From the NCBI GenBank assembly GCA_965219685.1, contig CBDCOH010000002.1:3104001-3168000 (forward strand): DNA of 64,000 nt, given 5' to 3'. Numbering within the stretch: position 1 is the first letter of the stretch; each line of letters begins with the position of its first letter. This DNA comes from Candidatus Spongiisociaceae bacterium (lineage in GTDB: Bacteria; Actinomycetota; Acidimicrobiia; Spongiisociales; Spongiisociaceae). The position numbers and the translations under genes are program-made. The notes under the pieces are model-generated. The model was not told the DNA's origin. It saw nothing but the letters and a program-made list of their open reading frames with translations, and did no database searches. This document shows, piece after piece, positions 959 to 55,558 of this stretch.

Positions 959-2163
959 TTGATGGGTGAGAGCCCTACGCCCGCTCCCGAGGTGTTCGTC
1001 GGTATGGACATCGCCAAGGGCAAACATTACGCCTGTGCGGTGTCGGCCAGCGGTGAGGCGCTGTTCGCCCGGGCGGTTGCCAACGACGAAGCAGCGATCC
1101 GGCGGATGATCGACAACGCTGGGGACCATGGCCGCCCGGCGTTGGTGGTTGATATGACCTCGTCGGCGGCTGTGCTGACCCTCACCGTTGCCGCGGAGAT
1201 GGCGGTTCCGGTGGCTTATGTGACCGGTTTGGCGATGCGCCGAGCTGCCGACCTCTACGCGGGTGCGGCAAAGACCGACCCCAAGGACGCCCAGGTGTTG
1301 GCCGACTTCGCTTGGCGTAACGCGGATCGGCTGACCTGGACAGCTGTCACCGATGAGTTGTTGGCCCGTCTGCGGATCCTCAACGGTCGGGACACAGATC
1401 TGGCCGCCGACGCGACTCGGGCCGCGAACCGGCGGAGAGACGCCCTATTAGCCGTGGTCGGCGGCTCTGGAGCGTGCCGTGGGAGAAAGGCTGATGTCGG
1501 TGCCCGGTCTCAGAGCCGCGCTGGTGAGATACGCCACCCCGTCGGCGCTGCGAACGGCCGGCAAAGCCCGGGTGCGGACGCTGATCTCCAAGCGCTCCAA
1601 ACGCACCGCCAACACACTCACCGACCAGATCTCGGCTGCGCTCGGCTCCCAGACCGTCACGGTGCCAGCCGAGGAGACCTGGGGCGAGACAATCGGCGAC
1701 TTGGCCGCCGACCTGGACCGGATCATCAACCGCCGCCAGCGGCTCGAAGCTGACATCGAGCAGGCCTTCTTGGAGCATCCGCTCAGAACAAGTCCTCAAC
1801 AGCATGTGCGGGTTCGGGCCCCGCACCGGCGCTCGAACCCTCGCTGAGATCGGCGACCCGCACCGTTTCGCCAACCCAGGCCGGCTAGCCGCCTACGCCG
1901 GGCTAGCCCCCGTGGACCGCCAATCAGGCCGCAGCCACCGAACAGGGCGATCACGAGGCGGTAACCACCGACTCAAGAACGCCATGTTCATCGCCGCGTT
2001 CGTTGCTACCCAACACGACCCCGACGCCCGTGCCTACTACCTACGCAAACGCGCCCAGGGCAAAGAACACAACGCCGCGGTCATCTGCGTCGCCCGCCGA
2101 CGCTGCAACATCATCCTGGCCATGCTCAAAACCCAAACGCCCTACCAACCCCGCCAATCCTAG
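959..2163 (+). pseudogene. IS110 transposase, frameshifted (3 ORF pieces)
   Basis: DEDD N-terminus (VGMDIAK...AKTDPKDA) and C-terminal LAAYAGLAP..QSG..GNHRLKNAM in different frames. Confidence 0.9.
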
Positions 2164-13013: not shown

Positions 13014-14967
13014 CCCGAATTTGGCGGGTGTTTTGCGTTTTGCCTGGTCAGAGGGGGTTTGGCGGTGGGGTGTTTCCACTACATGGGCGGTGTGGGGGGC
13101 CGGTGGTGGGGTTAGGGGGTTAGGTGATGGTGGGGTTGTCCCAGGTGCGGGTGTCTGCTCCGATGGCGGTGAGGATTCGGGTTTGCAGGGGGCTGCGCCG
13201 GCTGGTGACCTGGATTCGGCGGCGGTTGGCGGTGAGTTGGTGGCGGCGGATTCGGTTGAGGTCGCGCAGGGCTCGGGCGGCGGTGAGGTGCTGGTCGCCG
13301 AGGTCGGGATCGCGGATGTCGGCTGCTGCGAGGGCGTGGTTGATGAGGGTTTCGATTAGGGCGGCGTAGACGCAGACCGCGACGTGGCCGCGGACTCGTT
13401 GTTCGGTCCAGTGCCTGACGGGGCGGAGCCTCAGGAAGTCTTTGAGGACCCTGAAGCGGGTCTCGACTGCTTGCAGTTGGCGGTAGTGGTCCACGACTTG
13501 GGCGGTGGGGGCCTGGGCGGGTGTGAGGCTTGTGGCTAGCACGTAGCGACCGGCGAGGAGTTCTTCGTATGTGTGGGTGTCTTCGTTGTAGTGGTAGAGA
13601 AACCGTCCAGCTCCGATCTCGATGTCGAAGAGCCGTCCGGCGCCGCCGGAGGCGAGGATACGCTGCGCGGCCGCCCCGATTTTGGCGGGGTCCTTCAGCT
13701 TGCCGGCGCGGACGCGCAGCTCCAGCGCCCGCAGTTTTGCCTCCGCCGCGGCGATGATGTGGGCTGTGCGGGCGGCGTCTCGGCGGGCGCGGCCGTCGGA
13801 CTCGACCACAACCGCCCGGGTGCCGTCCTCGAGGCTGATATCAGCGGCGCGGCAACGGTACTGGTCTATGTCGACCCAGACGGTGTCGTCGTCGATGGCC
13901 GCAAGGGCTTGGTTGCTGATACGGTCACGACGCAGTTTCGTGGCCAATATGTGGTCGAACCCGGCTTCGGCGACCACTTCGATGTTGGCTGCCGACATCA
14001 GGCCCCTGTCAGCGACCACACAGATACGGCCCACCGCGAACCTCTCGGCCAGGTCGCTCAACACTGCCGCCAGGGTGATGACATCGGCGGTGTTGCCCGA
14101 GAACACCCGATGAGCGATCGGGATCCCGTCGGAGGTGCACAGCAGGCCGATCACTATCTGGGGCCGATCAGCACGATGGTCCCGCGAGTAACCGAACGCC
14201 CGGGATGGGAAACGCCCAGACGGGCGGGTCGAACCCTCGAAATATGTGGAAGTGAGGTCGTAGCAAACCAGCCGCAGGTCCAGGTTCGTCAGGTCGCACA
14301 ACCGCGAATACAGATGTGTCTCCGTGTCGTCCTTGGAAGCGGCGACCGCGTCCAGGGCCCGGTAGTACTGATCAATCGACGGAGCCGACCAGCCCTCGGG
14401 CATGACCACATCCGCCCCGGCCCACTCAACCAGTTGCCGCTTCGAGCACGGTGCCACCAACCGGTTGGCCACCATCGCGAATACCGCATGCTCCAAGGCC
14501 TTCGCGCCCCGTCTAGCGCCGACCTGAGCGAACCACTCGTCGAGGCCGAGCCGCTGCCACACCGCCCACACCGCCGCTACCGCCCCCACCCCAGGCGCCC
14601 CCTCAGCTTCCAACGCCCCCACATCGACACGTTCGCGGCGTAGATGACGCTCCAGCGCGGCCACGATCCGTTCCAGCTGGCCGGACTCCCGCAAAGCGGT
14701 CACCTCCCCCAGCCGCAAAAGAGTCCGGTGACCGACCTTCGACCCTTGGCGGAAAGACTCCACCAAAGACAAATACTCGTAAACCTTGTCGCCCCTGCGA
14801 CGGCGGGTCGTCTTTACGAACATGGCCAGAACAATACCACTAACAGCCCATCTAATCAACGATATGTCGCCCCTACATTCTCGCACCGGAACGGTGTTCT
14901 ACACCACAAAACCCCAGGTCAGCGAACCAACCACCCCCACAAAGCCCCCCAACCCGCCAAACTCGGG
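13014..14967 (-). mobile_element. IS1634-family element copy 1 (1954 bp), TSD TCCTA
   Basis: IRs cccgaatttggcggg / cccgccaaactcggg; tccta at 13009-13013 and 14968-14972. Confidence 0.93.
13120..14823 (-). CDS. IS1634-family DDE transposase
   Basis: YDLTSTYFEG, GYSRDHR, VADRGL, VETRFRVLK; start at MFVKTT. Confidence 0.93.
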   Translation of the reverse strand: MFVKTTRRRRGDKVYEYLSLVESFRQGSKVGHRTLLRLGEVTALRESGQLERIVAALERHLRRERVDVGALEAEGAPGVGAVAAVWAVWQRLGLDEWFAQVGARRGAKALEHAVFAMVANRLVAPCSKRQLVEWAGADVVMPEGWSAPSIDQYYRALDAVAASKDDTETHLYSRLCDLTNLDLRLVCYDLTSTYFEGSTRPSGRFPSRAFGYSRDHRADRPQIVIGLLCTSDGIPIAHRVFSGNTADVITLAAVLSDLAERFAVGRICVVADRGLMSAANIEVVAEAGFDHILATKLRRDRISNQALAAIDDDTVWVDIDQYRCRAADISLEDGTRAVVVESDGRARRDAARTAHIIAAAEAKLRALELRVRAGKLKDPAKIGAAAQRILASGGAGRLFDIEIGAGRFLYHYNEDTHTYEELLAGRYVLATSLTPAQAPTAQVVDHYRQLQAVETRFRVLKDFLRLRPVRHWTEQRVRGHVAVCVYAALIETLINHALAAADIRDPDLGDQHLTAARALRDLNRIRRHQLTANRRRIQVTSRRSPLQTRILTAIGADTRTWDNPTIT

Positions 14968-15156
14968 TCCTATGGCACGCCACCCCGTGAGGGCTACAAG
15001 GGGTCTCACCAACCGGCCGGGGTACGATCTATGTTCAGGAGTCGGGTTCCAGGAGCATCCAACTCACCGGCCAGCCAGCTGGACCACCATACCCTCCCAG
15101 AAACACCATAAGAAGTGGTGGACCCCCTTAGGAGCATCCGGGCGGTTCAGTTGTAG

Positions 15157-25496: not shown

Positions 25497-26024
25497 TGTA
25501 ACAACCCCGGAAAGGGTTTGTAATCCGTGCTGCCTACGTGTTGAAGTTGGTTCCGCTCTGCTCGGACCCCCGTCTGGCCCACGGGTGGGCAGTCAGCTCG
25601 GCTGCCGTCCCTAGCGACGTTGACCCCCTTTCGTGGACCCGCTTGTCCTTCTCCTCGTAGGCGGGATGGCGGAGGCGGTCATCGGCCTTGTGGATGGCTT
25701 GGCCGGCATCTGGCTGATACCGGTTTTGTTGATGGCGCACCCCCACGACTAGCCGGGTCCCCAGGTGCGGGAGGGGCTTATCTTGGAAGAGGTCAAGGTG
25801 TTCGACTGCGACCGGACGTTGGGCACCACAGCGGAGGAGCTGGCGCGCAGCGTGCAGTTCACCGTCGGTGTGCGAGTGGGCAGAGCCGGGTGTTGCGTAC
25901 CCGGGCCCGGTTCGAGACCTGGGCTGCCACGATCCGAATGGACGTGGATCCCGAACTGTTCGACCAGGAGCAGTTGTGAACCGCCCCGGGTTTGCCGGAG
26001 ACTCCGGGGGAACACTCATACTTA

Positions 26025-26181
26025 AGGGGACCTCGACCGGGGTCCGGTCTGACGCAGCGGGAAACTGGCTGTGGTGCCTTACCCCGGATCTGTCGGCCGG
26101 GCACCGGTCGGGGGGTACGGGCAGCTAGCCCGGAGCGGATGTGACCTCATAGGAGCTTTGGTCGTTTCTTCCCCACACCCT
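26025..26181 (+). ncRNA. Bridge RNA of IS110-C, 5' part (continues at 27561-~27600)
   Basis: Target-like guides cgggaaac (26058-26065) and ccccgga (26082-26088); donor guide cataggagc (26148-26156). Confidence 0.65.
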
Positions 26182-26231
26182 GATGCTTCTATGTTGTGCA
26201 AATCCGGTGTTGGGGGTGGGGAGAGGTTCGG

Positions 26232-27305
26232 TTAGCCGCTGCCGGCGGGGGGTCCTGTATGGGTGTTGTGGTTGGGTGGGTTCTCTAGGAGCCGGTAGAG
26301 GTGGCGGGCGATGTAGCGTTTGAGGCAGCGTCGGGCTTCTCGGGGGGTTTTGCCTTCGGCGGTTCGTTTAGCGATGTAGGCCTGGGTCTTGGGGCAGGTG
26401 CGGGTGCGGGTGATGACGATGGTGTGGAGGGCTTGGTTGAGGGTTCGGTCGCCGTGGCGGTTGAGCCGGTGGCGGCTGTTTTGTCCGGAGGACGCCTCGA
26501 GTGGTGCTACGCCGGCGAGGCGGGCGAAGGCTGCTTCGTTACGGAAGCGGCCCCGGTGTGACCAGGCGACATAGATCTGAGCGGCGGTGATGGGTCCGAC
26601 TCCGGGCTGGTCAACCAGGTGGGGAGCGACTGTTTCGACGAGTTCGGCGATGAGCGCGGTTAGTTCGGCTATCTCGGTGGTGAGAGTCTTGATACGTCGG
26701 GCGACAGATCGCATGGCTGTCTTGGTGGCGGTGTGCTCGGTGAGGGTCCCGCCTCGGAGCCGGAATCTGTGGCACTTGGCGACCAGGCCAGCGGTGGTGA
26801 GGCCCCCGAGTTGGTCCCGCAGACCAACCGGTGCGGTTACTACCAGGGCTTTCAACTCGTTGATCGCCGCCACCCTGGCTGTTTGGGCTCCTCGGCGGGT
26901 GGTTTCCAACACTCGCAGCGCTTCGCGGTTTCCCCGAGCGCGGGGAACTGGCAGCCGACCACGGCCTAGGACCTGGCGGGCGGCCCGCCGTGCGTCGAGG
27001 GCGTCAGTCTTGGCGCCGTCGCGGGTCGGGGTGGGATCCCCGAACTCCACCACCCACTCACCACGGGCAGAAAGGTAGCCGGCCACGCCAGCTCCATAGC
27101 TGCCGGTGCCTTCCACAGACCACACCCGGTCACCTACCCGGGTGTGGGTGCCTGCCCATTCCAGCAGACGGTCGTAACCCACCCGGGTGGCGCCAAACAC
27201 CCCAGATGCCTGCTCTCCGGTGGTGGCAGTGTCCACCACCGACGCGGTGACCCGGTCCCGGTCAGGATCGATCCCGATCACGTGCTCTACCATCGTGGCC
27301 AACAT
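26232..27305 (-). CDS. IS110 transposase (bridge recombinase), intact
   Basis: IGIDPD, VEGTGSYG, AKTDALDA, LAGVAPLEASSG, RLNRHGDR. Confidence 0.95.
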   Translation of the reverse strand: MLATMVEHVIGIDPDRDRVTASVVDTATTGEQASGVFGATRVGYDRLLEWAGTHTRVGDRVWSVEGTGSYGAGVAGYLSARGEWVVEFGDPTPTRDGAKTDALDARRAARQVLGRGRLPVPRARGNREALRVLETTRRGAQTARVAAINELKALVVTAPVGLRDQLGGLTTAGLVAKCHRFRLRGGTLTEHTATKTAMRSVARRIKTLTTEIAELTALIAELVETVAPHLVDQPGVGPITAAQIYVAWSHRGRFRNEAAFARLAGVAPLEASSGQNSRHRLNRHGDRTLNQALHTIVITRTRTCPKTQAYIAKRTAEGKTPREARRCLKRYIARHLYRLLENPPNHNTHTGPPAGSG

Positions 27306-27339
27306 AAGAAGACGCTCTCTTTCTTGTGCGAACTGGGCT

Positions 27340-27545
27340 ATCGCCTCCTAAGGCGCAGACCGTGACGGCAGGACTGTGATGGGTCACACCCCGGACGGTG
27401 GACAAGCTTCTGATCAGGCCAGCAACGGAACGCCCAGGCGGCGCAGCGGCGGTGTCGGACGCATCACGGTAAAGACACAGAGGTCAGAGTGTTCTCGGGT
27501 CACGACCCCGCCGCTGACGCCAATCCTGGCAACCTCAACGAGACC
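27340..27545 (-). ncRNA. Putative bridge RNA of IS110-B
   Basis: Guides at 27487-27495 and 27464-27470 match the flanking target; agaagc and tcacag match its own ends. Confidence 0.7.
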
Positions 27546-27640
27546 CACCCGATACTCACAGAGTGTTTTGTCCACCCGCTTCGGACCGGCGCTGCCGCAC
27601 AAATCCTATCCAACACAAGGAGAGGGGAGACACAGGGAGC

Positions 27641-28869
27641 ATGCCGGAACAAGACCAGGTCGATGTGTATGGAGGGGTTGATACCCATCGGGATATCCAC
27701 GTTGGAGCGGTGCTGGATCACACGGGTCGCCTACTGGGGTCAGAGGAGTTCAGGGCTGATGCGGCGGGATACGCGCAGCTGGAGGAGTGGCTCCGCTCCT
27801 GGGGGCAGCCGGTTCAGGTCGGTGTGGAAGGATGCGGTAGTTACGGCGCCGGCCTGGCTCGTTATCTGACCCGAGCCGACATCGAGGTGGTAGAAGTGAT
27901 GCGTCCCAACCGCCAGCTGCGTCGTCTCAGAGGCTGACACGGTCGACACCGAGGCTGCAGCCAGAGCTGCCCTCAGCGGAGATGCCACCGGGCGACCCAA
28001 AGGCGGGGACGGACCCGTAGAAGGGATAAGAATGCTTCGGATGGCTCGCCGTTCAGCGGTCAAAGCACGCACCCAGGCCGCCAACCAGATCCACGCCCTC
28101 CTCACAACCGCCCCTGAGCAGGTCAAACATCGGCTCCGGGACTCCAGTATCCAAGCGATGGTCAGAATCTGTGTCCGCTGGCGTCCCGGCGAAGCGCAGA
28201 CCACCACCGCGTACGCGAAAAAGGCGCTGCGGCACCTGGCCCGCCGATACCGGACCCTCGACACAGAAATAGCCGAACTCGACACCGACATCCGCCGTCT
28301 CTGCGCCAAGGCCAACCCGGCGCTCCTAGCCGCCTCCGGAGTGGGCCCCCACAGCGCTGCAGCACTCCTAGTCGCCGCCGGCGACAACCCCCAACGCATG
28401 AAATCCGAAGCGGTCCTTCGCGGCACTATGCGCCCTCAGCCCCGTCCAAGCATCATCGGGACAGATAGTTCGGCATCGGCTCAACCGAGGCGGCGACCGC
28501 CAAGCCAACAACGCTCTCTGGCGAATCGCCACCAACCGGATACGCACCGACCCCCGCACCATCGAATACACCCGCAGACGCAAAGCCGAAGGCAAAACCC
28601 GCCGCGAGATCATCCGCTGCCCCAAACGGCACATCGCCCGCGAGATCTACCACCTCCTAACCAAACCATCCCCAACACCCGACGGCAACGACCTCCGCCT
28701 CCAACGCCACCAAACCCGACTAACCCTCACCGACACCGCCGAACACCTCCAGGTCCACCCCACCCTCCTATCACTCCTCGAACGAGGCCTCCACCACAAC
28801 CACCAGCTCGCCACCCGCTACCAGAAATGGCTCACCGACCCGACCACAAAACCGATTTGCAAAACATAG
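27641..28869 (+). pseudogene. IS110-C transposase, frameshifted, with C-terminal XRE-type HTH
   Basis: GGVDTH, GVEGCGSYG, RHRLNRGGDRQAN, then LTLTDTAEHLQVHPTLLSLLERG. Confidence 0.85.
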
Positions 28870-28889
28870 ACACCCCAGGAGCGCAAATG

Positions 28890-30110
28890 TCAAGCTGCGG
28901 CTTGGTCGAGGGCGGTTCGGTGTGCCCATGCGGTGTGTTCGTTGTAGGGGGTTCGGTGTTTGAGGCAGCCGTGGAGGATGCCGACGAGTCGGTTGGCGAG
29001 GGCTCGTAGTGCTTGGTGGTGGAGGTCGTCGGCTGCTCTTCGTTGGTCGTAGAACGCTCGGGCGCCTGGGCTGTTGTTTAGGGAACAGAACGCCCACTGG
29101 TCGAGGGCGTCGTAGAGACGCCGGTTGCGTATGTGGCGGGCGACCACGGCGTGTTTGCGGCCTGACGCCACTGTGACGGGCGACGTGCCGGCGTAGTTTC
29201 TGCGAGACTTGGCGCTGGTGTAGCGTTGGGGGTCGTCCCCGAACTCACCAAGCGCCCGGGCGCCGAGGACATTGCCGAGTCCTGGCTGTGAGAGGTAGAT
29301 ACCGGCGTCCGGGTGCTCCTCAAAGCGGGTTTCCAGGGCTGCTTCGAGTTCTGCGATCTGGCGGTTCAGTTCCGCAACGACGCTCACCAGCGCCCCCACA
29401 GTGGCCCCGTGTGCATCGGCGACCGGGCCGGGTGCGGCGAGCTGGGGGGTGCGGAGGCCTTTCTGGATTCGGCGGGCAACCTTGTCGAGGTTGCGTCTCC
29501 GGCCGGCGGCTTTGAGCGCGGCTCGGATCTGGGGCAGGGTCAGGCGGGCACCCCGGGTGGGGCTGGTTGCCCGGCCGAGTACAGCCAGGGTGTCGCGATG
29601 GGCCAGGTCATCAAAGGTTTCCAGCGCTGCGGGATAGTATCCTCGGAGCGTGTTGCGCATCTGGTTGGTGTGACGCACCCGGGCCCATTTCAGGTTCTGA
29701 TGTGTTCTCGCCAGTGCTTTGATCCCGTCGGCTTCGGGGCTGTCACCGGCCACGCTACGATGGTTGTGACGGTCGGTTCGTACCAGATCGGCTAACACCT
29801 TGGCGTCGCCACGGTCTGACTTAGCTCCTCCCAGGTGATGCCGGTCCCGGTAACGGGACACCGCCTTGGGATTGATCGCATACACCTGATAGCCCGCCCC
29901 GATGAGGGCACCAACCCAGAGGCCACGGTCGGTTTCGATGCCTACCACCACCTCGGCCGGCTCCGATGCGTGCTCGGCGACCATCTCATGCAAGCCGCCA
30001 ATCCCCTTGATCCCTTCCCGGAAACGAGCGAAACCCAGGCGGGCTCCGTAGGCGTCCATCAGATACACATCGTGGTGGCCCTCAGCCCAGTCGTTACCAA
30101 CAAAGATCAT
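28890..30110 (-). CDS. IS110 transposase (IS900/IS116-like), intact
   Basis: VGNDWAEGHHD, GIETDRG, AKSDRGDA, YAGTSPVTVASG. Confidence 0.95.
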   Translation of the reverse strand: MIFVGNDWAEGHHDVYLMDAYGARLGFARFREGIKGIGGLHEMVAEHASEPAEVVVGIETDRGLWVGALIGAGYQVYAINPKAVSRYRDRHHLGGAKSDRGDAKVLADLVRTDRHNHRSVAGDSPEADGIKALARTHQNLKWARVRHTNQMRNTLRGYYPAALETFDDLAHRDTLAVLGRATSPTRGARLTLPQIRAALKAAGRRRNLDKVARRIQKGLRTPQLAAPGPVADAHGATVGALVSVVAELNRQIAELEAALETRFEEHPDAGIYLSQPGLGNVLGARALGEFGDDPQRYTSAKSRRNYAGTSPVTVASGRKHAVVARHIRNRRLYDALDQWAFCSLNNSPGARAFYDQRRAADDLHHQALRALANRLVGILHGCLKHRTPYNEHTAWAHRTALDQAAA

Positions 30111-30149
30111 CCTTCGCCTCCTTCTCCGGGGATCAACTCTCTCCTGAGC

Positions 30150-30335
30150 TGTCGAGAACGCCTGGCGGCGACCTAATGGATCAGTGCTCTATGGCACGCC
30201 ACCCCATGAGCGCTACAAGCGGTCTCACCAACTGGCCGGGGCACGATCTATGTTCAGGAATCAGGTTCCAGGAGCATCCAGTACTCACCGGCCAGCCAGC
30301 TCAACCACCACACCCTCCCAGAAACACCAGAAGAA
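30150..30335 (-). ncRNA. Bridge RNA of IS110-D
   Basis: Sense GGATGCTCCT (30270-30279) and AACATAG (30248-30254) match the target; TGGGGTG (30200-30206) and CCATTAG (30173-30179) match the donor junction. Confidence 0.8.
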
Positions 30336-30374
30336 GTGGTGGACCCCCATTAGGAGCATCCGGGGCGGTTCAGA

Positions 30375-32328
30375 CCCGAGTTTGGCGGGTTGGGGGGCTT
30401 TGTGGGGGTGGTTGGTTCGCTGACCTGGGGTTTTGTGGTGTAGAACACCGTTCCGGTGCGAGAATGTAGGGGCGACATATCGTTGATTAGATGGGCTGTT
30501 AGTGGTATTGTTCTGGCCATGTTCGTAAAGACGACCCGCCGTCGCAGGGGCGACAAGGTTTACGAGTATTTGTCTTTGGTGGAGTCTTTCCGCCAAGGGT
30601 CGAAGGTCGGTCACCGGACTCTTTTGCGGCTGGGGGAGGTGACCGCTTTGCGGGAGTCCGGCCAGCTGGAACGGATCGTGGCCGCGCTGGAGCGTCATCT
30701 ACGCCGCGAACGTGTCGATGTGGGGGCGTTGGAAGCTGAGGGGGCGCCTGGGGTGGGGGCGGTAGCGGCGGTGTGGGCGGTGTGGCAGCGGCTCGGCCTC
30801 GACGAGTGGTTCGCTCAGGTCGGCGCTAGACGGGGCGCGAAGGCCTTGGAGCATGCGGTATTCGCGATGGTGGCCAACCGGTTGGTGGCACCGTGCTCGA
30901 AGCGGCAACTGGTTGAGTGGGCCGGGGCGGATGTGGTCATGCCCGAGGGCTGGTCGGCTCCGTCGATTGATCAGTACTACCGGGCCCTGGACGCGGTCGC
31001 CGCTTCCAAGGACGACACGGAGACACATCTGTATTCGCGGTTGTGCGACCTGACGAACCTGGACCTGCGGCTGGTTTGCTACGACCTCACTTCCACATAT
31101 TTCGAGGGTTCGACCCGCCCGTCTGGGCGTTTCCCATCCCGGGCGTTCGGTTACTCGCGGGACCATCGTGCTGATCGGCCCCAGATAGTGATCGGCCTGC
31201 TGTGCACCTCCGACGGGATCCCGATCGCTCATCGGGTGTTCTCGGGCAACACCGCCGATGTCATCACCCTGGCGGCAGTGTTGAGCGACCTGGCCGAGAG
31301 GTTCGCGGTGGGCCGTATCTGTGTGGTCGCTGACAGGGGCCTGATGTCGGCAGCCAACATCGAAGTGGTCGCCGAAGCCGGGTTCGACCACATATTGGCC
31401 ACGAAACTGCGTCGTGACCGTATCAGCAACCAAGCCCTTGCGGCCATCGACGACGACACCGTCTGGGTCGACATAGACCAGTACCGTTGCCGCGCCGCTG
31501 ATATCAGCCTCGAGGACGGCACCCGGGCGGTTGTGGTCGAGTCCGACGGCCGCGCCCGCCGAGACGCCGCCCGCACAGCCCACATCATCGCCGCGGCGGA
31601 GGCAAAACTGCGGGCGCTGGAGCTGCGCGTCCGCGCCGGCAAGCTGAAGGACCCCGCCAAAATCGGGGCGGCCGCGCAGCGTATCCTCGCCTCCGGCGGC
31701 GCCGGACGGCTCTTCGACATCGAGATCGGAGCTGGACGGTTTCTCTACCACTACAACGAAGACACCCACACATACGAAGAACTCCTCGCCGGTCGCTACG
31801 TGCTAGCCACAAGCCTCACACCCGCCCAGGCCCCCACCGCCCAAGTCGTGGACCACTACCGCCAACTGCAAGCAGTCGAGACCCGCTTCAGGGTCCTCAA
31901 AGACTTCCTGAGGCTCCGCCCCGTCAGGCACTGGACCGAACAACGAGTCCGCGGCCACGTCGCGGTCTGCGTCTACGCCGCCCTAATCGAAACCCTCATC
32001 AACCACGCCCTCGCAGCAGCCGACATCCGCGATCCCGACCTCGGCGACCAGCACCTCACCGCCGCCCGAGCCCTGCGCGACCTCAACCGAATCCGCCGCC
32101 ACCAACTCACCGCCAACCGCCGCCGAATCCAGGTCACCAGCCGGCGCAGCCCCCTGCAAACCCGAATCCTCACCGCCATCGGAGCAGACACCCGCACCTG
32201 GGACAACCCCACCATCACCTAACCCCCTAACCCCACCACCGGCCCCCCACACCGCCCATGTAGTGGAAACACCCCACCGCCAAACCCCCTCTGACCAGGC
32301 AAAACGCAAAACACCCGCCAAATTCGGG
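30375..32328 (+). mobile_element. IS1634-family element copy 2 (same as copy 1, inverted), TSD TCAGA
   Basis: Same IRs and identical translation; tcaga at 30370-30374 and 32329-32333. Confidence 0.93.
30519..32222 (+). CDS. IS1634-family DDE transposase
   Basis: Identical to the 13120-14823 product. Confidence 0.93.
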   Translation: MFVKTTRRRRGDKVYEYLSLVESFRQGSKVGHRTLLRLGEVTALRESGQLERIVAALERHLRRERVDVGALEAEGAPGVGAVAAVWAVWQRLGLDEWFAQVGARRGAKALEHAVFAMVANRLVAPCSKRQLVEWAGADVVMPEGWSAPSIDQYYRALDAVAASKDDTETHLYSRLCDLTNLDLRLVCYDLTSTYFEGSTRPSGRFPSRAFGYSRDHRADRPQIVIGLLCTSDGIPIAHRVFSGNTADVITLAAVLSDLAERFAVGRICVVADRGLMSAANIEVVAEAGFDHILATKLRRDRISNQALAAIDDDTVWVDIDQYRCRAADISLEDGTRAVVVESDGRARRDAARTAHIIAAAEAKLRALELRVRAGKLKDPAKIGAAAQRILASGGAGRLFDIEIGAGRFLYHYNEDTHTYEELLAGRYVLATSLTPAQAPTAQVVDHYRQLQAVETRFRVLKDFLRLRPVRHWTEQRVRGHVAVCVYAALIETLINHALAAADIRDPDLGDQHLTAARALRDLNRIRRHQLTANRRRIQVTSRRSPLQTRILTAIGADTRTWDNPTIT

Positions 32329-45057: not shown

Positions 45058-45550
45058 GGCTCTTCAGAGACGAGTAGAGATAAGGGGGATCTGCCAGGGT
45101 TGTTGATGAGCGCGTTGCACATCTGGTTGCTGTGCCGTTCCAAGGCCCATTTCAGGTTCTGTTGTGTCCTAGCCAGTGCTGTGGTACCGTTCACTTCAGC
45201 GCTGCCGGTGGCCACCGGGCGATGGTTGTCACGGTCGGTGCGTACCAGATCGGCTAACACCTAGGCGTCACAACGGTCAGATTTCGCTTCGCCCAGATGA
45301 TAAAGCGCCCGCCAACAGGGACACGGCCTTGGGATTGATCGCATACACCTGATAGCCCGCTGGGGCCAGGCTACTAACCCAGAGGCCACGATCCGTCTCG
45401 ATGCCTATCGCCACCTCGGCCAGCTCCGACTCCGATACGTGCACCCCAACCATCTCATGCAAACGGCCAATCCGCTTGATCCATCCCTGGAAGCGAGAAA
45501 GACCCAGCCGGACTCCGTGATCTTCCATAAGATGCACATCGTGGTCGCCA
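45058..45550 (-). pseudogene. IS110-D-type 5' fragment abutting an ISL3 end (ggctcttc at 45058)
   Basis: DHDVHLM..GIETDRGLWV..YAINPKAVS; LADLVRTDR. Confidence 0.75.
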
Positions 45551-45557
45551 GCCGCGG

Positions 45558-54137: not shown

Positions 54138-54167
54138 TGAACCGCCCCGGGTTTGCCGGAGAGTGTT

Positions 54168-55408
<1,241 letters not shown>

Positions 55409-55558
55409 GACTCCATTATCTCCCAACTAATCGAGTCTCCGGAGAAACCGGGGCGGTTCACATACCGCGGACCCCAACCCGGGGATTGAGAATAGGTCGC
55501 AACCCGCTCCTGCGGCCACCCCGCTCCAACCAAGACTGCACCTGTTGGGCTACTTGAG

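Follow-up and report, generated by a model that had tools for sequence, protein, structure and literature searches.

Insertion sequences (ISs) of the IS110 family lie inside one another at one locus of Candidatus Spongiisociaceae bacterium, and the question that this locus raises is what placed each of them exactly where it is. The locus belongs to a stretch of 64,000 nucleotides (nt) of contig CBDCOH010000002.1 in assembly GCA_965219685.1 (positions 3,104,001 to 3,168,000), the whole of which is called the window here. A 49-bp mini element made of two inverted repeats (IRs) of the IS3 type contains the IS110 element C, and C in turn contains two further IS110 elements, B and D. Bridge recombinases have been studied mainly as programmable genome editors, and the natural targets known for them are repetitive extragenic palindromic (REP) sequences, attC sites and the IRs of Tn21. 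We consider it quite probable, on the strength of the sequence, that insertion was programmed by a bridge RNA at each layer of this nest: B and D would be aimed at the donor-recognition sequence of the C family, and C at the IS3 IR.

Anatomy of the nest and its empty sites

Coordinates are given as window positions on the + strand, and C2 is the contig of the source genome, G000. The nest was resolved by BLAST of positions 25500-30800 against the organism's own genome, which found the sequence of C split into 25998-26183 and 27561-28869, followed after D by 30354-30372. Three uninterrupted, intact C copies (C2:4233049, 3022177 and 217378) share 95-96.5% identity with the window copy across the 1.3-kb body. 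They run through the B insertion point as ...CCCCACACCCT-GA-GTGTTTTGTCC... (core part CACACCCT-GA-GTGTTTTG) and through the D insertion point as ...GCAAAACAT-AG-GAGCATCCGGGGCGGTTCA (short form AACAT-AG-GAGCATCC), and they read AACATAGGAGCATC at the right end (RE). Since the intact copies lack both interruptions, the limits of B were set at 26184-27560 between two GA flanks and those of D at 28870-30351 between two AG flanks.

An earlier note on this DNA, made from the letters alone, had placed B inside the non-coding RNA of C and D inside its right end. Both placements held when compared with the empty sites of the intact copies. B splits the right donor guide (RDG) in the donor loop of C, with the crossover at T-GA-GTGT, and D splits the left-donor (LD) sequence, with the crossover AACAT-AG-GAGCA five bases from the end of C and directly 3' of its stop codon. 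This stop codon, TAG at 28867-28869, itself falls within the left-donor sequence AACATAG. The earlier note also had the invaders intact and their host a pseudogene, and this was seen as well: B and D have open reading frames (ORFs) of 357 and 406 amino acids (aa), while C carries a 5-bp deletion near 27931 and a 1-bp insertion near 28405. The left target guide (LTG) of the window C has two substitutions.

The body of C was placed at 26014 to 30358 by the family alignment, with AC as its left core and TC as its right one. Other boundaries had been tried, namely GGGG/AAACAC and GGTTCA/ with cores AA, AT and GG; they were ruled out by this alignment, in which the LTG ends before ACTCATA and the right target guide (RTG) reads TC plus the right target (RT). 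The left end (LE) of C is ~250 nt long, and only 5 nt and the core follow the stop codon. A -35-like TTGCAA in the RE and a -10-like CATACT in the LE, both read by eye, would form a putative promoter with a spacing of 17 bp once the ends are joined.

The outer layer proved to be real, as the earlier note had described it. The IR 13-mer TGAACCGCCCCGG lies at 25977 and, inverted, at 30360-30372. It forms the termini of a 1.32-kb element, which NCBIfam assigns to the IS3 family and of which there are several full copies with the same IRs, one of them at window 54138-55460. An empty 49-bp IR-IR miniature with the C site unoccupied was found at C2:2939823-2939871. The mini element had been doubted at an early stage, the left IR being missing beside other C copies, and the doubt was dropped in view of the full IS3-family copies and the empty miniature. 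The IR arms flank C, and the left boundary was set by the covariation of LTG and flank in the C family. All C copies (4/4) lie within IS3-type IR sequence, C copy 3022 being located in the IR of a full-length IS3 copy, and the target of C in this IR is CTCCGGGGTA-AC-CGGGGCGGTTCA.

Guides, sites and covariation

In IS621, according to the available text of Durrant et al. 2024 (PMC11208160), the LTG corresponds to the target directly and the RTG as the reverse complement, with the core in both. The earlier note had proposed such a pair for each IS110 element, one direct and one reverse-complement segment that match the reconstructed site, and a second pair that matches the element's own junction. 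Both pairs were recovered for B, C and D, the second as a left donor guide (LDG) and an RDG that match the RE and the LE.

The match is complete for D, whose LTG GGATGCTCCT equals the left flank plus the core in direct sense (10/10) and whose RTG AACATAG is the reverse complement of the core plus the right flank (7/7); its donor guides TGGGGTG and CCATTAG match its own ends. The LTG of B, GAGAACACTC, matches the window site CAAAACAC-TC at 8/10 positions and the site in its second host, AGAACAC-TC, at 9/9, and its RTG, ACCGT-GA-T, matches TC-AGGGT at 7/8. Two further stretches in the B left end, TTGTCCACC and GGGTGTG, were considered as guides and are better explained as structural parts homologous with C. 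The RTG of C, CCCCGGAT, matches the IS3 IR, and so does, with mismatches, the LTG of its intact copies (CCGGGAAAC-type). Its LDG CATAGGAGC is identical to its own RE, and its RDG TGAGTGT corresponds, in reverse complement, to the start of the LE, AC+ACTCA.

The alignment of D-type left ends shows, in this order, a 5' hairpin, a stem (CUGGCCGG/CCGGCCAG) that closes an internal loop, and a second loop. All hypervariable stretches lie in the internal loop, where a small hairpin (GGAAC..AUUCC) has a 10-mer directly on its 5' side and a 7-mer on its 3' side; the two sides of the second loop match the element's own ends, TGGGGTG(G/T)C for the RE and CCATTAG for the LE. A consensus fold of 14 D-family left ends gave the 5' hairpin, the target loop with LTG and RTG around its hairpin, and the second loop; the single-sequence fold of the D target loop had z = -3.6, with 0/200 shuffles as good. 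In the single-sequence fold of the C donor loop, the guides face each other across a single internal loop, which GCGGAUGUGAC/GUCCACCCGC closes, and this fold was no better than shuffles (z = 0.39). The guides were thus located in internal loops, where the earlier note had expected them. The predicted two-loop layout of the left-end RNA applies to D and C as well as, by homology to C and the guide matches, to B, in which the donor loop is weakly supported.

If the guides choose the sites, they should change together in other copies, as the earlier note had also anticipated. The D-family sample came from a protein search of 41 related genomes, which gave 30 loci; 23 D-family ends were located by motif, 21 of them with the left end and 19 with both flanks. 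Those 19 copies have 11 distinct guide pairs, and 117/143 non-core guide positions match their own flanks. When the flanks were shuffled among the guide types the mean was 82, and 0/100,000 permutations reached 117. For the C family, 14 left ends were aligned and a motif-anchored table of 16 elements was made. The C/B superfamily has 10 distinct guide pairs, B included, with 95/110 matches against a permuted mean of 38, and here too 0/100,000 reached the observed value. The LTG column of the C family (CCGGGAAAC, CGCGAAAAC, AAGAACAC, CCTGATTC, ACTGAAATTC, CCTTGTAAC) covaries with the left flank and always ends just 5' of ACTCATA, and the five bases 3' of ...CATAGGAGCA-TC vary together with the RTG column (NNNNN-GA-T). 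The LDG and RDG blocks are near-invariant across the family; the RE motif CATAGGAGCA-TC was found in 14/16 elements, with one substitution each in the other two.

Protein families were assigned by Pfam and NCBIfam scans. The model NF033542, for the IS110 family RNA-guided transposase, has a cut-off of 140 bits, which is exceeded by B at 163.7, by D at 181.7 and by intact C at 203.6. All three proteins carry PF01548 and PF02371, with an N-terminal DEDD (RuvC-like) and a C-terminal Tnp_20 domain. They have the IS110-group architecture, a long non-coding LE 5' of the recombinase gene and a short RE without long IRs at or near the termini, and the core dinucleotide is duplicated in D (CT/CT) and B (TC/TC) and only partly in C. 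The features of the IS1111 group were not seen: the right ends measure 5-48 nt and the guides are in the left ends, so that C, which hunts IRs like IS4321, is yet no IS1111-group member. By every testable feature of their sequences except an RNA-family match, B, C and D are otherwise ordinary IS110-group members. The proteins of D and C also scored weakly, at 30.9 and 33.1 bits, with the NCBIfam model of the TIGR-Tas RNA-guided endonuclease, for which the cut-off is 100; this agrees with the family link that has been published. The features are collected in Table 1.

Table 1. Features of the nest and of the element next to it, in window positions.
Feature	Position	Strand	Description
Nest as a whole	25977-30372		49-bp IS3-type IR-IR mini element, containing C, which contains B and D
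Left arm of mini element and left core of C	25977-26013		IR arm 25977-26011 (TGAACCGCCCCGGGTTTGCCGGAGACTCCGGGGGA), core AC 26012-26013; left half of the C target
C left end, first part	26014-26183	+	bridge-RNA gene: 5' hairpin, target-binding loop, LDG, first RDG bases
C guides in first part	LTG 26055-26065; RTG 26082-26089; LDG 26148-26156; RDG start 26181-26183	+	LTG decayed; RTG CCCCGGAT; LDG CATAGGAGC; RDG start T-GA
B, whole	26184-27560	-	1377 bp; IS110 element; core TC (GA on +) duplicated at 26182-26183 and 27561-27562
B RE	26184-26231	-	48 nt
B transposase	26232-27305	-	357 aa, intact; PF01548 and PF02371
B LE and bridge-RNA gene	27306-27560	-	255 nt
B guides	LTG 27487-27496; RTG 27463-27470; LDG 27406-27412; RDG 27374-27379	-	LTG GAGAACACTC; RTG ACCGTGAT; LDG (C)AGAAGC; RDG TCACAG; placed by homology with C
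C, remainder	27561-28869	+	rest of RDG (GTGT), closing stem of donor loop, transposase pseudogene from ATG 27641
D, whole	28870-30351	-	IS110 element; core CT (AG on +) duplicated at 28868-28869 and 30352-30353
D RE	28870-28889	-	20 nt
D transposase	28890-30110	-	406 aa, intact; PF01548 and PF02371
D LE and bridge-RNA gene	30111-30351	-	241 nt
D guides	LTG 30270-30279; RTG 30248-30254; LDG 30198-30206; RDG 30173-30179	-	LTG GGATGCTCCT; hairpin GGAAC..ATTCC; RTG AACATAG; LDG TGGGGTGGC; RDG CCATTAG
C right-end tip	30354-30360	+	last 5 bp GAGCA and right core TC; separated from C by D
Right arm of mini element	30361-30372		CGGGGCGGTTCA; right half of the C target, matched by the C RTG
IS1634-family element	30373-32300 (end approximate; ORF 30456-32222)	+	abuts the mini element; outside the nest

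Recurrence of the insertions

The flanks of other copies agreed with what the earlier note had foreseen: copies with the same guides occupy the same IS110 sites. G000 has two B copies, which are identical at 1374/1378 positions (99.7%); identity between their hosts is 71.5% (165 aligned nt) and 69.9% (1023 nt). In another species (G007) both B/C junctions are present, on two contig ends. In another genus (G013) there is a 215-bp remnant of the B left end, 96% identical and with the same junction, 5' of a C-like gene. B copies were therefore found in the RDG of the C family in both cases of the source genome (2/2) and in these two genomes.

The 19-mer of the B/C junction was sought in 401 genomes of the order, with the reversed pattern as a control. 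It was exact in G000 (twice), G007 and G013, and a variant occurred three times in G391; the reversed pattern gave 3 hits in the 401 genomes at <=2 mismatches. Junction matches with two mismatches in G055, G350 and G391:L075 were rejected, being at the level of the reversed control and having no IS110 protein nearby. G391 belongs to a different family and harbors a B relative that is 74-80% identical in aa, one copy of which (76% aa) lies in a C-like element (69% aa). The RDG of this host reads GAGTGG, and the LTG of the B relative is GACCACTC versus GAACACTC, a compensatory change. The flank of the second B-like copy resembles an IS110 donor loop, without a nearby recombinase gene, and the third copy is truncated. 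No claim was drawn from the unpublished genomes G028 and G039.

Independent contigs from public sequencing runs (X1 record 1, X4 record 11 and X6 record 25) bridge the B junctions. One of these, the X6 contig, comes from a metagenome of a different study; it bridges the B left end into C (26754-28731), and the C right end there is without D. A contig of X5 carries B with a left flank that is unmatched from 30 letters. The joints 26181>27561 and 28866>30351 in X1 and X4 are no excision events; they are explained by other, uninvaded C copies of the same genome.

Among the 23 located D-family ends, nine lie at C-family sequence (G000, G001, G002, G006 and G007), ten at the terminal IR of a ~140-bp miniature inverted-repeat transposable element (MITE; G001, G005 and G006), two at CACCTGG repeats (G002) and two at non-IS sites (G000), one of which adjoins the stop codon of a gene. 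At the C right end (AACAT-AG-GAGCATCC) lie L031, which is the window copy, and L033 with its left side. Those at the C-family LDG in the left end (..GTGACCTNAT-AG-GAGCYTTG) are L042, L053, L055, L058 and L059, plus L036 and L048, for which this holds on the right side alone. In four genomes, sister D lineages are inserted at the LDG within C-family RNA genes. Every located copy with D guides for C sites abuts C-family sequence on at least one side, as does D_3089, a further G000 copy, and the guides differ among the target classes in the expected way. Empty MITE sites were found in G005 (six), G006 (two) and G001 (one).

Further observations concern these elements and their surroundings. The window segment 14970-15150 is a D-type left-end fragment with the same guides, showing 92% identity to 30189-30373; GAGCATCCGGGCGGTTCA comes next, and beyond it the DNA is unrelated. 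Judged by its sequence, the segment is a second, older junction of D in the C right end. At L065-L069 (G005 and G006) and L064 (G001), a third D lineage is inserted exactly at the terminus of the MITE, whose terminal IRs are CTAGGAGGGTSCTGAGAAA. Around the MITE there is a further conserved repeat (..CCCTGATTATTCAGGTTTCCC..), which the left flank of the C-like lineage L005 resembles. The B RE at 26184-26205 (AACATAGAAGCATC) resembles the C RE, and the D guides would match it at 8/10 (LTG) and 5/5 (RT) positions, which makes it a predicted near-cognate target of D; no D insertion in a B RE was seen. The Rfam family Ms_AS-4, a small RNA of Actinobacteria, matched 29208-29289 (+) with 80.7 bits against a gathering score of 50, antisense within the D recombinase gene, and this family seems to have been built on a segment of an IS110 gene. 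IS110-type remnants at 1542-2148 (+) and 45108-45555 (-) gave tblastn matches to D with 37% and 67% identity, and the element called A in the earlier note may be one of the two.

Outside the nest, the IS1634-family element (NF033559, 357.7 bits) starts directly after the last base of the mini element. The same element end cuts a D-like left end at window 14969/14970 (copy at 14542-14969) and the second B-in-C composite at C2:3050004. It was also noted at C2:3020664, and an IR-like piece follows GGTTCA at C copy 3022. This family may also prefer these IS ends.

Proposed mechanism, alternatives and relation to known systems

Each of B, C and D would encode a two-loop bridge RNA in its long left end, and the target-binding loop would fix the insertion site; the RNAs are presumably made and presumably guide the recombination. 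The C guides would direct C into the terminal IR of the resident IS3-family element and its 49-bp IR-IR derivatives. The B guides would direct B, antisense, into the RDG TGAGTGT of C-family bridge-RNA genes, and the D guides would direct D, antisense, into the left-donor AACATAG/GAGCA at the C right end. Sister D lineages carry guides that would fit the mirror-image LDG, ATAG/GAGC, within C-family bridge-RNA genes. The two types of D site share ATAGGAGC for the sole reason that C must keep its guide and its end alike. The earlier note had supposed that the IS110 lineages are aimed at each other's essential cis parts. The donor guide and the right end of C do appear to be targeted, whereas the relation runs one way (B to C, D to C and C to the IS3 IR) and is not reciprocal.

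The choice of such targets may be explained by their conservation. The donor guides of an IS110 element must stay complementary to its own ends, and so in the C family they rank with the best-conserved non-coding sequences; being conserved and multi-copy, guides and ends would make durable landing pads that are neutral for the cell. Insertion there would cost the cell nothing, which is the same logic as that of REP, attC or Tn21-IR targeting. The insertion of B would break the donor loop of C, and that of D the continuity of the C right end and the presumed junction promoter, so that an occupied C copy could no longer work in cis.

Several observations weigh against programmed insertion at each layer. 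Copies within a genome or a genus are kin, and the counts overstate their independence. A scan of 25500-30800 with Rfam 15 (E <= 1) found no family match for the left ends, only Ms_AS-4 and a chance long non-coding RNA, and Rfam may hold no bridge-RNA model. The stems of the D alignment are almost invariant, with a double change in 1/64 pairs, and the structure therefore rests mainly on guide/flank covariation; RNAalifold of the C-family left ends did not recover the C donor loop. The B donor guides are only 6-mers, the donor-loop fold of B was no better than shuffles (z = -0.15), and in each of the three right-hand sites known its RTG mismatches at one and the same position. The cores of C share only their C, and the first core position must therefore be tolerant. 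At C-family junctions (G000, G002, G001, G007 and G021) the right core is always TC while the left core is AC, TC or CC, following the LTG of the element, and in this subfamily it seems that only the second core base must match. Furthermore, 14/23 located D-family ends lie outside IS110 elements, and only 1/3 B-like copies of G391 is clearly within a C-like element. The guides of L033 (G001:C180) match poorly (5/8 and 2/5), and two D'' copies in G000 (C2:3082039-3083517 and C2:3088161-3089653) have a one-sided match each.

The last three loci appear to be rearranged. L033 is a D-type element flanked on one side by 5' sequence of a C-like left end and on the other by the final C right-end bases with the IS3 IR, the whole body of C being gone. 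The two D'' copies are frameshifted and in inverted orientation; their flanks look exchanged, and a C-like left end is split between them. This suggests for L033 a deletion that joined two D insertions and a ~5-kb inversion between copies for the D'' pair, and half-match reactions, as reported for IS621, are an alternative.

Within programmed insertion, the damage to C may be what selection favoured, or it may follow incidentally from the choice of a landing pad that is safe and durable, and the neutral reading of a safe harbour fits equally well. We put forward only tentatively that B and D are hyperparasite lineages co-evolving with the C family, with target guides that would track host donor guides; these the host is unable to change freely unless its own ends change as well. 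It is rather unlikely that B and D were favoured by selection for disabling a competing IS110 family, with their guides tracking the host donor guides in an arms race. Such antagonism would agree with the insertion positions, which are exactly the donor-recognition parts RDG, LDG and LD of the host, with the death of the occupied C copy, with the LTG of the B lineage that follows the RDG variant of its host across bacterial families, and with the switching of D lineages between the mirror-image sites LDG and RE. However, the same facts follow from a simple choice of the most conserved multi-copy sequence. In addition, the genome that harbors B and D retains its three intact C copies, none of them invaded, and other D lineages use the MITE end or non-IS sites. 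A hit copy might also still be mobilised by others, since the bridge RNA can act in trans according to the available text of Durrant et al. 2024 (PMC11208160).

A single ancestral insertion, with the composite then spreading so that recurrence would say nothing about targeting, is very improbable. L055 and L059 (G002) have identical flanks on both sides and are probably copies of one composite, and the composite of the window may be the one on the X6 metagenome contig. On the other hand, the B copies are 99.7% identical while their hosts are ~70% identical, those of G007, G013 and G391 belong to different lineages of the C family, D-type elements occur in at least four different host flank contexts, and the guides match the sites. 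An assembly chimera or a random pile-up in an IS graveyard is scarcely credible: C2:3.02-3.15 Mb is packed with IS copies and fragments and the contigs from public runs break at repeats, but the junctions lie at single-base-exact empty sites with duplicated cores, the independent contigs of X1, X4 and X6 bridge the B junctions, the junction 19-mer recurs in other genomes against 3 control hits in 401, and both permutation controls gave 0/100,000.

Programmed insertion into another mobile element has precedents. Partridge and Hall are said to have described in 2003 that IS4321 and IS5075, of the IS1111 group, target the terminal IRs of Tn21-family transposons. C resembles them in its fixed position and orientation in the terminal IR of another element, here of the IS3 family. 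They differ in belonging to the IS1111 group, in using subterminal IRs and in having the guide RNA in the right end, whereas C is of the IS110 group; moreover, their targets are IRs of DDE transposons and not the guide sequences of an RNA-guided element.

The nearest described system is IS621. As far as the available text of Durrant et al. 2024 (PMC11208160) goes, the elements of the nest share with IS621 and the IS110 bridge recombinases the recombinase with DEDD and Tnp_20 domains, the long LE with target- and donor-binding loops and the short RE, and D has the same CT core. By the same text IS621 targets REP sequences, whereas the targets here are parts of mobile elements, including the bridge-RNA gene of another IS110. 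The core of B is TC and that of C is NC with a mismatch at the first position. The IS1111-attC group (ISKpn4, ISPst6) and the REP-targeting ISPa11, ISPpu9 and ISPpu10, in the accessible portions of the reports (PMC11187229; PMC12288879; 10.64898/2026.03.19.712850), likewise use guide RNAs to select short, conserved sequences that occur in many copies and where insertion does the host no harm; the targets described there are attC or REP sites, not cis-elements of transposons of the same family.

IS110 loci are also reported, in the parts available of Hu et al. 2026 (10.64898/2026.08.14.744561) and Xie et al. 2026 (10.64898/2026.08.31.748434), to take further insertions, with one-sided half matches at internal boundaries and rearrangements between copies. 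L033 and the D'' pair resemble these cases. The expanded loci, as described there, grow by the donor recognition of the resident itself, whereas in the nest the target guides of distinct lineages are aimed at the donor guide or end of another lineage. In the main text of Hu et al., so far as it was available, the terms 'nested', 'another IS110' and 'different IS110' do not occur. In open-access papers and bioRxiv no description was found of an IS110 programmed against the bridge-RNA gene or donor end of another IS110; the supplementary tables of Durrant et al. 2024 and Hu et al. 2026 could hold cases. The targeting of mobile genetic elements by IS110 was already known, and what appears to be new here is a programmed target that is the guide-coded sequence of another bridge element.

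Taken together, the nest offers a natural example from several genomes in which the RDG, LDG and left donor of another bridge element would serve as programmed targets. It suggests a general rule: a donor loop and donor ends that are locked together are the slowest-changing non-coding parts of such an element and can be reliably targeted by other mobile DNA. The predictions are that swaps of the guides retarget B and D, that invaded C copies need help in trans, and that the B RE is near-cognate for D. The finding bears on how IS110 families limit each other, or hitch-hike on each other, in IS-rich genomes. If B and D are indeed hyperparasites, the donor loop of the bridge RNA would be the Achilles heel of these elements and its invasion a natural brake on the copy number of IS110 families, and the lineages would provide ready-made orthogonal pairs of recombinase and guide whose targets are other bridge systems.

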